Program-made: the position numbers and the translations under genes
In this document: positions 37,973-50,789 of the stretch, piece by piece
Layout: every line of letters starts with the position of its first letter
Position numbering within the stretch: the stretch's first letter is position 1
Notes under the pieces: model-generated
The model's database searches: none
What the model was told of the DNA's origin: nothing
Seen by the model: the letters and a program-made list of their open reading frames with translations, nothing else
DNA from: an uncultured Clostridia bacterium
Lineage (GTDB): Bacteria; Bacillota; Clostridia; TANB77; CAG-508
Length of the DNA stretch: 57,618 bases
Assembly (NCBI GenBank): GCA_944393325.1
Contig: CALXZU010000004.1
Location: forward strand, 1 to 57,618
Direction: 5' to 3'

Positions 37973-39928
37973 TTAACTCAACCTCATTCTATAAACTTGT
38001 GTACTATTTTGTATGAACAAATATGTACAAGCATTTTTCATATCCTCTCTGATAAAAATTTTGGAATCTTTATTTACGACTCCAATATTTATCTGACTGA
38101 CTGTTGACTCTTCAACTGTTTTACCTGATTTCAAGAACAGAACTCTTTTATCAGCTGGAATCACAAGCATCCAGTTGAAATAGATACTATTCTTAAGATT
38201 GAGTCCTCCGAATGAAAACGCTCGGAATTGTTTGAGAACTCTTCCTTTACGTCTGACTATATAACAGTCATATCCATTCGAATTTCTCCTTTTGTTGATT
38301 ACACACCAATTTTTACTTATGCTATCATACTTGATAGCTCTTGGGAACTGTTCCATCAGCTGTTTTTTCTGCTGACCGTTAACCTTGATATCCAAATGCC
38401 CAGCTCCATTTATTGCACATATACAGTAATCTCCATCTCTATTAATCTCATAGATAAATGGATTATCCTCTGCATTTGCAACTGTTACTGCGCAATTATC
38501 AACAGTCATATAGACTTTAATCAGCTCGTTTTTACCATTCACATAGAATAAATAATCTCCACTGATTTTTAGTCTTGAACTCTGCTTTAAAATAATAGCT
38601 GAATACAATTTCTTTCCAGCTTTATTGCAGATTTCCAGATTACAGGCAGGATTATTAGAATCTCTACACTTCTTTAATTTCTCTCCAAATGAACAATTCC
38701 CATAAAGAGAATTAAATTTTCCAAAGAGAGTATAAAAGAACTGCTTTATTCTACTTATTGCCCTAACGCTAATGGTAATCCCATTTCCCAAAAAATACAT
38801 TTCCTTTACACGAGAATCAACCTCTTTTTCTATTGTACTTCCATCTGAATTAATGTGAATAGCCTTTTCATTAAAGTCAAAATAGGTTGAATCGTCTATA
38901 ACCTTTCTGACTTCATTATCTGGAAATATTGCATATCTTCCATACGAAATCGAAGTTACGCTATAAGTTCTAAATGTTTCTAAGGCATTTTCACTAGAAG
39001 ACTTACAGACTGGACATTTTGAATATCTTGAAGAATTGTAATAATGACCTTTTTTACACTTTTTCAGGCTTTTCCTCGTTAATTCGAGTGAATCCAAGAT
39101 ATTAAATCTTTTTCCACCTTCAAAGATTTTTAGGAAGTCATTTTGCAATCCCTCAGACATCCATGCTACATGTTCAATCTTAAAGCTGTCAAGTTTTTTC
39201 AGATTATGATTACCAATAATTGAAATACGATTCAATGCTTTTAAAGGTTGATCATAATCACGTGCAAGTGGATATACACCATCAAATGGATTAAATCCAA
39301 CAAGCATTTCAAAAACAACAACAGCTAATGAGAAACAATCGGACTGTTGTGTGTATTGGTCAATAACAACGCCATTTGCACTAAAGTCCCTTACTTGAGG
39401 GTCAATGTACTCAACTCTTCCTGTTTTATCGGCTTCATATCGTCCTTCAATTCCCCATGTATCAGTATCACATACAAAAACATCTCCATCTCTTGTCATG
39501 AACTGATCGGCATGGAAATCACCGATAATAATTCCTTCTGAGTGTAAATCTTTTACAAGTTCTGCTAATTTACACGCTATGTTAAGAATTTTTCTCTCAT
39601 CCATTGCGTGTTTTCTAGCCTTAATTTGAAAATCTTTAAGACTTACACAATTTTTAAGCATAGGCATTGTGTATCCACAGCATCTTCCATTGCATCTAAT
39701 GATTTCTTCTGGCAAAGCAGCATTTGGGAAACGACTCTTATATTTTATCAGCTCCCTAAGTTTTGCTTCCTTTTCCCGAATATTAGAATAATCAGTAAGT
39801 GCAAATATCTTAATTACCTTTTCGTTCTTGTTATCATAGTAAATAATTGATTGATCTCCAACTGGTCCTTCGGTAAGTTTACTAAGAAAATTAAGATAAG
39901 ACTTTTTGCTTGCAAAATCGTAACGCAT
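37973..39928 (-). CDS. Ser/Thr protein kinase-like protein, YegI/TerY-associated type
   Basis: KVIKIF, IGDFHADQF, CDTDTW, SDCFSLAVVVFEML, HYY...CPVC knuckle, beta-rich C-terminus. Confidence 0.75.
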   Translation of the reverse strand: MRYDFASKKSYLNFLSKLTEGPVGDQSIIYYDNKNEKVIKIFALTDYSNIREKEAKLRELIKYKSRFPNAALPEEIIRCNGRCCGYTMPMLKNCVSLKDFQIKARKHAMDERKILNIACKLAELVKDLHSEGIIIGDFHADQFMTRDGDVFVCDTDTWGIEGRYEADKTGRVEYIDPQVRDFSANGVVIDQYTQQSDCFSLAVVVFEMLVGFNPFDGVYPLARDYDQPLKALNRISIIGNHNLKKLDSFKIEHVAWMSEGLQNDFLKIFEGGKRFNILDSLELTRKSLKKCKKGHYYNSSRYSKCPVCKSSSENALETFRTYSVTSISYGRYAIFPDNEVRKVIDDSTYFDFNEKAIHINSDGSTIEKEVDSRVKEMYFLGNGITISVRAISRIKQFFYTLFGKFNSLYGNCSFGEKLKKCRDSNNPACNLEICNKAGKKLYSAIILKQSSRLKISGDYLFYVNGKNELIKVYMTVDNCAVTVANAEDNPFIYEINRDGDYCICAINGAGHLDIKVNGQQKKQLMEQFPRAIKYDSISKNWCVINKRRNSNGYDCYIVRRKGRVLKQFRAFSFGGLNLKNSIYFNWMLVIPADKRVLFLKSGKTVEESTVSQINIGVVNKDSKIFIREDMKNACTYLFIQNSTQVYRMRLS

Positions 39929-40177
39929 AATTTCCTCCTATCATAGAGTTTCCTTTTTGTGGGATATAGCATATGATTGGTAGATTTTACTACCATTGTC
40001 AAAGTTCTTAGTTAAGAATTTTGAAAAAAACTCTTTAACTGCAAATATTTTATCATTTTTTATCATTTTTGTCAATATTATGTAAATATAAGTTGCTATT
40101 AGCAATATTGTTAATTAATAATTTATTATAATTATAGAAAAGAAGCCCAAATATGGACTTCTTTTCTATAGCTCATT

Positions 40178-50600: not shown

Positions 50601-50789
50601 TATTTCATGTTCATCTAATAAACTATCAGATATAGCATCTATTAGTTCTTCTTCTATTTCTTCTTCTATTCCCTGGATTCTTTCTTCTAATTCTTCCTGT
50701 GTTTCATTTTCCTTTTTATTCCATTCCTCTAAATTAATATCATCTATTTGATTTATTATTTCTTCTATTTCCTTAAATTCTTCCAACAT
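47691..50789 (-). CDS. 1032-aa protein with C-terminal PPP-type metallophosphoesterase
   Basis: SDLHGQ, GDAIDRGPDG, GNHE, GHTP, IDCGS; C-terminal part paralogous to the 931-aa protein. Confidence 0.82.
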   Translation of the reverse strand: MLEEFKEIEEIINQIDDINLEEWNKKENETQEELEERIQGIEEEIEEELIDAISDSLLDEHEINEEEAIKEAREKIQKEYEIYQEAFDIDNNGKLILKNNEELSRLGYNTNEEIEKLNSVANNYNNPNLYIESIRKSIKEVKDIDTEIDRKLEIAKIYISAKIRGEEPVISSNVIKTQKYEDNNKYIGTTKQLSRVPIVQNEFVYNSGLISRSYIRYMPDLPKISNNTQLSNNTMATSNVMPRQRTKVANPTKLQVLRNMEKKIDKSNELTKQKIKARTELKMAFKEFEGKELNEAENNSLKQRIAKIEKKYPNTVNEKILSRLYESFKIKQPKEKSNGLDSELETIELKEEEQQEPLINPPVNNGTKHQNNLLEKRQERKIRSPKIGKLAIGATLGILKSKGKKKLTDLIGSAKKIRTKANDSRRQLRQSVIEKENDKNINKENNQKEKTEPSKQASRDEIKDVINKSLRMSDIIKYQKGAIIPIINHTVNYLKENDDENVQKFLDKTLKQIENIPAINLLNQKYNVLIFDYISSLYKDGISTEGREIIPKDDNKKYYYTYILNRKIGENISENIQLNQQRLEKIKEYYDENSEKIERGYLEILRKQNLKKKASLYEKLKSSKEYSKAIQDLNLSTENDYIRLLTIKEDLKNGVYRRTIGSFTNKMEYERLFDTIIKRFNNGEQFSKKALEDLGDICYEGISDNFENRVIEPKIDLAKRLYSKITNIEENKKVYGRLLNIRKLELNPIADKKKIRQIDKIIKEKGLRRDSEIVIRDKATINQYVCSDLHGQYEIYEKIVNSIGKNDKLYILGDAIDRGPDGIKILQDIARRQEKGQVEFFMGNHEYMMLQSLFLGNKQVEKVWTSDSNEGKKTKEDFDKLSVEEKGKIKDLLLNALVYKEVNTGDEKIHLVHAKAIQDSNKKEERVKDLLNTERQEDLETAVWTRKGDKKSSENDEVWKDEEIGKDNEFTIIGHTPTSGTIDLAKGYVNIDCGSSYFGNECLLRINDGKVMYVDNFEGCKQQMKDEHEEIR

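Follow-up and report, generated by a model that had tools for sequence, protein, structure and literature searches.

A candidate TerY-P-derived phospho-switch cassette with PPP-type phosphatases in uncultured gut Clostridia

The window analyzed here, i.e. a 57,618-nucleotide stretch of an uncultured Clostridia bacterium (GTDB lineage Bacteria; Bacillota; Clostridia; TANB77; CAG-508) corresponding to positions 1 to 57,618 of contig CALXZU010000004.1 (forward strand; assembly GCA_944393325.1), harbors a gene cassette in which a Ser/Thr kinase is accompanied by two von Willebrand A (vWA) proteins and two very large PPP-type proteins. G+C content is ~25% across the window, and every long open reading frame (ORF) within 37386-50789 resides on the minus strand. 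In order of transcription, these ORFs encode PPP1, vWA1, vWA2, PPP2, an IS4 transposase, an M34-like peptidase, the kinase and a 165-amino-acid (aa) protein (Table 1), with the families of the cassette genes backed by Pfam, NCBIfam and PHROG. All seven genes of an initial annotation made from the sequence alone were recovered in place and on this strand; that list had left out the 165-aa protein, which carries three transmembrane (TM) helices, and a DUF7192 partner encoded in most relatives. The same annotation had suggested PP2C to be absent and large PPP-type proteins to be present. Indeed, the latter matched Metallophos; no cassette gene matched PP2C, and neither did any gene called in the 10-kb surroundings of 14 related loci.

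Table 1 Features of the cassette, its transcription signals and its surroundings (window coordinates)
Feature	Coordinates	Strand	Remarks
PPP1	47691-50789	-	1032 aa; Metallophos E 1.6e-13; PHROG NinI-like Ser/Thr phosphatase E 2.3e-31
vWA1	46697-47386	-	229 aa; VWA E 2.7e-8; intact MIDAS
vWA2	45772-46464	-	230 aa; VWA weak; 66% identity to vWA1
PPP2	42882-45677	-	931 aa; Metallophos E 2.3e-12; PHROG NinI-like (phrog_246) E 7.6e-34
IS4-family insertion sequence	41299-42880; transposase 41490-42770	-	DDE_Tnp_1 and NCBIfam IS4 matches
ATLF/M34-like zinc peptidase	40178-41200	-	340 aa; HEFGH; ATLF E 2.7e-7
Ser/Thr kinase	37973-39928	-	651 aa; Pkinase E 1.2e-7
Three-TM small membrane protein	37386-37883	-	165 aa; alignment of 12 orthologs
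Sigma-70-like promoter of PPP1	50824-50852	-	12/12, extended -10
Promoter-like site, vWA1	47465-47493	-	similar to PPP1 site
Promoter-like site, vWA2	46545-46573	-	similar to PPP1 site
Promoter-like site, peptidase	41254-41282	-	between IS end and peptidase start codon
Promoter-like site, kinase	40047-40075	-	similar to PPP1 site
Terminator-like hairpin, vWA2/PPP2 gap	45708-45729	-	9-bp G+C-rich stem, then T-run
Intrinsic terminator ending cassette	37337-37362	-	10-bp stem, then T-run
cotJC, C-terminal fragment	31410-31679	-	'AAEQKARATYE...'
Large serine recombinase	31624-33186		one end of ~19.9-kb element
MazF/PemK-like ORF	33459-33884	-	profile positions 53-108 of 109, C-terminal half only
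Radical SAM protein (prokaryotic viperin)	34139-35323	-	PADLOC pVip E 3e-48, residues 6-266; extra C-terminal ~125 aa
Group II intron	~35504-37240	-	Rfam D1-D4 36929-37240; reverse transcriptase/maturase 35504-36904
cotJC, preceding fragment	51404-51682	-	'...LQEDLAA'
AbiQ/ToxN	51774-52304	-	just outside element; E 5.7e-46
PDC-S49-like AAA protein	52642-54510	-	just outside element
PDC-S05 (RhuM-like) gene	54910-55527	-	just outside element; SDR gene fragments follow

The kinase comprises a kinase domain (residues 1-285), a zinc ribbon (C291/H295/C305/C308) and an all-beta C-terminal domain (~340-650), with K40, D137 and D154-T155-D156 of the kinase domain and C291, C305 and C308 of the ribbon being invariant among aligned relatives. 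Its profile aligned to Escherichia coli YegI over 305 columns, from the kinase domain through a helical linker to the zinc ribbon (hhalign probability 96.9%), and both proteins share the peculiarities described for YegI (10.1101/819920), namely a non-canonical GD catalytic loop devoid of the His or Arg of HRD (IGDFHADQ in the window) and, in place of DFG, a DTD motif here and DSD in YegI. In the latter, the autophosphorylation site S162 is required for activity, and T155 is its counterpart in the window kinase. YegI belongs to the TerY-P triad, which a passage of PMC11090510 on Anantharaman 2012 and Gao 2020 describes as a TerY-like vWA protein, a PP2C phosphatase and a Ser/Thr kinase-zinc ribbon protein (YegL-PphC-YegI in E. 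coli), and the linkage of a kinase with zinc ribbon and beta-strand-rich domain to PP2C and a stand-alone vWA protein was reported by Kaur et al. (PMC7159879). The earlier designation as a YegI-type kinase accordingly fits the kinase domain and the zinc ribbon, but not the C-terminal 300 aa, which are unlike YegI. This region, folded into ~27 strands in an AlphaFold2 (AF2) model of the kinase (predicted local distance difference test score, pLDDT, 82.6), retrieved no more than 11 proteins among 1.84 billion representatives in a sequence search and hence is clade-specific; Foldseek with the kinase model returned kinase-domain matches only.

Searching plasmids with the kinase by tblastn yielded four distant matches, two of which are Trichormus records from sister strains. 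The three plasmid neighborhoods read (Sphingomonas, Trichormus and Calothrix) all proved to be canonical vWA-PP2C-kinase triads, and the Trichormus triad kinase matched the kinase profile with 98.6% probability (hhalign, E 7e-16), its ribbon (C..HYY.S.Y..C..C) being near-identical. Because the nearest relatives outside the clade occupy canonical triads, the initial view of a TerY-P variant with PPP replacing PP2C is accurate, and the cassette is best seen as a TerY-P derivative in which a PPP-fold enzyme took the place of PP2C. Going by the features that define TerY-P, it does not belong to that system, as PP2C was tested for and is absent. We consider it very probable that the cassette constitutes a functional module derived from TerY-P.

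In the alignment of the vWA proteins, the residues of the metal ion-dependent adhesion site (MIDAS; DxSxS, T and D) are conserved. The vWA profile matched the vWA protein of the aforementioned Trichormus triad with 84.6% probability (E 6.9e-6, 166 columns) and YegL with a probability of only 59.9%, the PADLOC TerY model had no match in the cassette, and one vWA homolog carries the Joint Genome Institute annotation 'YegL'. From these comparisons, vWA1 and vWA2 are clearly vWA proteins, which may belong to the TerY subfamily. vWA2 is the copy kept beside the PPP2-type gene in all lineages. At 66% identity, vWA1 and vWA2 look homogenized, as do the PPP paralogs described below.

The PPP proteins of the cassettes are 930-1130 aa long and variable at the N-terminus. 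PPP1 consists of an acidic/basic N-terminal region, a helical middle and a lambda-phosphatase-like PPP catalytic domain, while in PPP2 a beta/helical domain at the N-terminus is followed by a helical repeat region (~357-665) and the PPP catalytic domain (680-931). The motifs SDLHG, GD(V/A)IDRG, GNHE, HAK and GHTP are invariant in 14/14 aligned sequences. A Sel1/TPR label for the middle region, prompted by Sel1-like signatures seen by eye (LGDIxYxGI...A..IY.K), was dropped, as Pfam gave no Sel1/TPR match even at E = 5. A PPEP-type cleavage motif in PPP1 (Pro-Pro site INPPVN) was likewise discarded, since orthologs do not conserve it.

The best family match of the PPP proteins was the NinI/lambda-type Ser/Thr phosphatase (PHROG, E 1e-31 to 1e-34), and lambda phosphatase (1g5b) was the only PDB sequence match of the PPP profile (E 2e-5). 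Foldseek with an AF2 model of PPP2 (pLDDT 81.9) ranked PP5 (TPR+PPP) first, followed by the PnkP phosphatase domain and ApaH (TM-scores of 0.57-0.68), and NCBIfam matches to ApaH and PrpE were equal in quality to those to PrpA/B-type phosphatases. The fold thus seems equally close to ApaH and PnkP, leaving room for a nucleotide substrate: the PPP proteins might act as nucleotide phosphoesterases, i.e. as ApaH/PrpE-like Ap4A or capped-RNA hydrolases or as cyclic-nucleotide phosphodiesterases, in which case the module would couple the kinase to a nucleotide signal. Calcineurin-like phosphodiesterases are, in fact, common effectors of vWA-containing conflict systems (PMC7159879). We nevertheless hold a nucleotide-directed role to be improbable, given that NinI/lambda phosphatase is the best family match by far, that the PPP protein stands in a TerY-P-related cassette without a PP2C of its own, and that the cassette contains no nucleotide cyclase or nucleotide sensor.

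PPP1 and PPP2 share 63% identity over their C-terminal 630 residues and are unrelated N-terminal of that. The N-terminus of PPP1 is 48-60% identical to PPP1-type proteins at other loci. In its middle and catalytic parts, however, PPP1 shares 64-71% identity with PPP2 of the window, whereas PPP1-type proteins and PPP2 of other genomes are only 24-27% (middle) and 42-49% (catalytic) identical. With a PPP1-type N-terminus joined to parts that resemble the neighboring PPP2, PPP1 is chimeric, i.e. a recombinant, which points to gene conversion between the two genes in the window lineage. Orthologs compared with PPP2 show 33-51% identity in the N-terminal, 31-55% in the middle and 53-72% in the catalytic part, and mean identity across kinase orthologs amounts to 61% for the kinase domain versus 49% for the C-terminal domain. 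The lower ortholog identity outside the catalytic domains argues for the non-catalytic PPP and kinase parts to evolve fastest, and such divergence of the PPP N-terminal and middle regions and of the kinase C-terminus is what surfaces for sensing or recognition would be expected to show.

As for the remaining partners, Pfam assigned the peptidase to ATLF with 30.9 bits (cutoff 27.4), and its PDB profile matches were the ATLF-like protein 9g0j and PPEP-1/Zmp1. The protein is an internal duplication of a degenerate N-terminal copy, with MEYAN replacing HExxH, and an intact C-terminal copy; H256, E257, H260 and E305 are invariant in the alignment. No signal peptide was recognized at its N-terminus, which is hydrophilic and free of hydrophobic segments, and the enzyme is predicted to be cytoplasmic. 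This is unusual, as PPEP-1/2 are secreted and so are most M34 family members. The 165-aa protein, in which a Lys-rich linker joins two N-terminal TM helices to a third, C-terminal one (hydrophobic stretches 13-56 and 134-165), is the sole membrane protein of the cassette, and in nearly all loci its gene comes directly after that of the kinase. DUF7192 proteins (265-296 aa) are encoded by the last gene in most lineages and are absent from that of the window; we found no PDB relative and no literature for them, and their one PHROG match is 1909 (function unknown).

Sigma-70-like sites scoring 12/12 or 11/12, with an extended -10 element, precede PPP1, vWA1, vWA2 and the kinase, and a hairpin followed by a T-run is found after most cassette genes. 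This bears out the earlier proposal that the genes have separate terminators, and extends it to promoters. Since the genes have a promoter-like site and a terminator-like hairpin of their own, the cassette is, as far as such predicted signals tell, not a tight operon but a conserved array in which the genes are punctuated one by one.

Full-length relatives of the kinase form a family at 47-99% identity, the surroundings of which were taken from metagenome contigs and GTDB genomes and searched for cassette components by BLAST. Synteny was checked from three anchors, vWA and PPP being added to the kinase to avoid circularity. In nearly all loci fetched, the genes point in one direction and follow one order, (PPP-vWA)-vWA-PPP-peptidase-kinase-membrane protein(-DUF7192), which was seen in ~16 distinct lineages. 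The constant part is a kinase gene with at least one vWA and at least one PPP gene alongside; the number of vWA genes varies from one to three and that of PPP genes from one to two, and the peptidase is absent in L003. Wherever their flanks were long enough, loci anchored on vWA also included the kinase gene, a PPP gene or both, and three of the four divergent PPP proteins used as anchors led to full cassettes. The fourth, on a short contig (L037), is the sole exception among loci with sufficient sequence, its PPP gene adjoining that of a different, split HExxH protein. Kinase homologs without these families, named in the initial annotation as the finding that would speak against its proposal, were thus sought from all three anchors; nearly all loci carry kinase, vWA and PPP genes on one strand, and the proposal withstood this test. 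Because the same co-oriented order recurs from three anchors and over 47-99% kinase identity, the set is not a chance neighborhood: it is a unit, in an arrangement far beyond chance. In two loci, the cassettes stand in tandem (L007, 1-13085; L036, 336-17314) and in a shuffled order, P-v-K-A-s followed by v-P-v-K-D, the kinase gene directly following a vWA gene and the second copy lacking the peptidase. The hosts are uncultured low-GC Clostridia from the gut of chicken, human, rabbit and mouse, to which the cassette is confined, i.e. its phylogenetic range is narrow.

The insertion sequence (IS) between PPP2 and the peptidase sits at the PPP2 stop codon and is delimited by 18-nt terminal inverted repeats (41299-41316 and 42863-42880). 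Near-identical strains (L013 and L014) lack it at this site, where the junction shows an overlap of 7-9 bp and the PPP2-peptidase gap measures ~85 bp; IS4 is therefore a recent insertion and not part of the module. A different insertion of ~1.6 kb lies between vWA1 and vWA2 in L013 (3283-4906). The cassette is repeatedly targeted by IS activity. An IS amid the cluster and individual promoter- and terminator-like signals would also be in keeping with unrelated neighbors hitch-hiking together in an island; with order and orientation retained from three anchors down to 47% kinase identity, and with sister strains free of the IS, we find this explanation hardly credible.

The cassette region is flanked by two fragments of cotJC, which encodes a Mn-catalase-like spore coat protein, and a large serine recombinase lies at one end. 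The interrupted cotJC gene indicates that the cassette is cargo of a ~19.9-kb serine-recombinase element of the skin type, i.e. an intervening one. Its further cargo includes a radical SAM protein that represents a prokaryotic viperin (pVip) and is missing in sister strain L013, where 33672-37327 is absent, as well as a MazF/PemK-like ORF that is probably a truncated toxin gene adjoining the recombinase. A group II intron has inserted ~100 bp downstream of the final intrinsic terminator of the cassette; terminator-seeking bacterial group II introns have a known preference for such target sites. Just outside the element, the AbiQ/ToxN, PDC-S49-like and PDC-S05 genes form a second accessory/defense block adjoining it. 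Mobile neighbors of the related cassettes comprise a serine recombinase (L001), tyrosine integrases with phage lysis genes (L004 and L035) and IS elements, and their defense neighbors an Rpn-like nuclease (L009), AbiQ (L030) and a PDC-S23/S05 gene (L037). The cassette was not found among IMG/VR viral contigs with kinase, vWA and peptidase profiles, and GenBank phages contained no full-length relative of the kinase; a phage origin or an anti-defense role is accordingly not supported.

Such carriage raises the question of whom the cassette serves. In KKP, the kinases are the toxin and the phosphatase is the antitoxin, a phage protein that inhibits the phosphatase triggers defense, and the system also serves its element (PMC11341870). 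By the same token, the cassette could be an element-serving module, acting through phosphorylation-based addiction (akin to a type VII toxin-antitoxin system) or control of lysogeny or excision, with phage defense at most a by-product: a serine recombinase-bearing element holds it in the window, L013 and L001, and tyrosine integrases adjoin it in L004 and L035. Yet no recombinase, integrase or phage genes occur within 10 kb in L007, L010, L036 and L038, and the viral searches above came back without it, which renders such a role quite unlikely in our eyes.

Conversely, the cassette might be a housekeeping signaling module, i.e. a sensor of stress, metals or the envelope acting by Ser/Thr phosphorylation, or a regulator of sporulation or germination in these spore-forming hosts. 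TerY-P was first read as a metal-sensing phosphorylation switch, as a passage of PMC11090510 recounts, E. coli YegI/PphC have no known role in defense (10.1101/819920), motility of Sulfolobus is regulated by a vWA/kinase/PPP (PP2A) network (PMC7472852), and some cassette loci sit among housekeeping or sporulation genes. On the other hand, distribution is patchy, insertion sites vary, recombinases or integrases carry the genes, tandem duplication and recombination between paralogs have occurred, and pseudogenes are frequent, all of which argues for accessory conflict genes rather than core regulators. Co-location with pVip and AbiQ points the same way, and we judge a housekeeping function to be unlikely.

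Altogether, by sequence comparison the kinase and vWA proteins are homologs of TerY-P components, PP2C is replaced by one or two very large PPP proteins, all enzymes keep their catalytic signatures intact, and three partners are added: the cytoplasmic M34 peptidase, the three-TM protein and, in most relatives, DUF7192. The whole is best explained by a linked phospho-switch that descended from TerY-P and operates along the lines set out below, a reading to which we assign a probability of roughly 55%. A role in defense or conflict is suggested by the mobile islands that the cassette shares with known defense genes, with pVip in the same element and AbiQ/ToxN, PDC-S05 and PDC-S49 nearby; that the function would be defense or abortive infection, by analogy with such systems, strikes us as an even bet.

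Several points weigh against this reading, besides the latitude that the PPP fold leaves for the substrate and the separate punctuation of the genes. Some loci lie among housekeeping genes, with zero mobile or defense genes within 10 kb (L007, L010 and L036). PADLOC (2023 database) returned no model match but only weak, partial PD-T4-6/MAD6 matches of the kinase, and nothing for PPP, vWA, peptidase, membrane protein or DUF7192. PPP, kinase or DUF7192 genes are split or truncated in many relatives; errors of assembly, a relaxation of selection or a cost of the system could account for this. Among the RNA-seq runs searched, none contained the locus, matches being confined to DNA metagenomes of chicken and other guts. 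Finally, what is said below on the roles of vWA proteins, peptidase and membrane protein is conjecture.

The mechanism that we propose for the phospho-switch is drawn by analogy with kinase-toxin/phosphatase-antitoxin defense modules such as KKP. As long as the cell is at rest, the PPP phosphatases would keep the autophosphorylating kinase and its targets dephosphorylated. An invader-derived cue might be sensed by the beta-rich C-terminal domain of the kinase, or via the variable N-terminal and helical regions of the two PPP paralogs becoming bound or inhibited, and either route would shift the balance toward the kinase. The MIDAS-containing vWA proteins may bring the complex together, working as phospho- or metal-dependent adaptors, and the output would be growth arrest or death, brought about by broad phosphorylation and/or by the peptidase together with the small membrane protein. 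A more elaborate version, which we put forward tentatively and as rather doubtful, is multi-sensor abortive infection: the paralogous giant PPPs would be guarded antitoxins displaying different fast-evolving N-terminal baits to phage proteins, and loss of phosphatase activity would release the YegI-type kinase, the signal of which the cytoplasmic M34 protease would carry out along with the three-TM protein in a holin-like role. If this abortive-infection version is true, the exchange of PP2C for an unrelated phosphatase fold would also imply that TerY-P logic requires no more than an opposing phosphatase, opening a tractable route to the TerY-P mechanism.

The initial annotation had called the system undescribed, and in line with this it lies outside PADLOC 2023 and was not found in the literature searched; we regard the cassette as a good candidate anti-phage system. 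TerY-P, which protects against phages, is widespread: it occurs in E. coli and on numerous plasmids and is also joined to CoCoNuT restriction systems; to our knowledge, its mechanism is still unknown. A natural swap of the phosphatase fold would help to show which parts of TerY-P logic are essential, the more so as the swapped enzyme comes with large fused regions that evolve fast and are putatively used for recognition, and the protease and the membrane protein are candidate outputs. The cassette is clearly delimited and lends itself to experiments. With it, the pangenome of gut Clostridia that are uncultured and little studied gains an unrecognized candidate defense cassette, and such cargo is seen to be carried in a skin-like element that interrupts a sporulation gene.

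Compared with known systems, the likeness to eukaryotic PP5 is one of architecture: the PPP2 model aligns over ~520 columns, and in both proteins helical repeats precede the PPP domain, but identity is ~12%, Pfam detects no TPR/Sel1 in the helical region of PPP2, and the resemblance is analogous only. The single-gene kinase defenses PD-T4-6 and Stk2, and MAD6 of MADS, likewise employ a Hanks-type kinase, and the window kinase gave weak PADLOC matches to them (E 6.6e-10 and weaker); these matches cover only ~120 residues of the catalytic core, and vWA, PPP and peptidase partners are all missing from these systems. The Arn network of Sulfolobus (ArnB vWA, ArnA FHA, kinases ArnC/D and the PPP-type PP2A) offers the only well-studied example of a vWA protein under the control of Hanks-type kinases and a phosphatase of the PPP family (PMC7472852). 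It resembles the cassette in this respect, but is an archaeal motility regulator with an FHA partner and not such a cassette, homology being at the domain level only.

KKP, known from Pf and other prophages, has in common with the cassette its carriage on mobile elements and the opposition of Ser/Thr kinase(s) by a phosphatase, and provides the model, established by experiment, of how phage defense can arise from such a pair. In contrast to the cassette, it combines PP2C with two kinases and CSD/FHA, contains no vWA, peptidase or membrane protein, and is proteobacterial; each cassette has a single kinase, and no PP2C, CSD or FHA match was obtained in the cassette proteins. TerY-P-like modules, for which anti-phage activity was reported by Gao 2020 as cited in a passage of PMC11090510, differ from the cassette in that the latter has one or two PPPs of 930-1130 aa instead of PP2C, one to three vWA copies, an added M34 peptidase, three-TM protein and DUF7192, and individually punctuated rather than overlapping genes. 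What the cassette shares with TerY-P is the kinase with its GD loop, D-[ST]-D in place of DFG, CxxxH...CxxC ribbon and beta-rich C-terminal domain, an adjoining small, co-oriented, stand-alone MIDAS vWA protein, and an opposing phosphatase.

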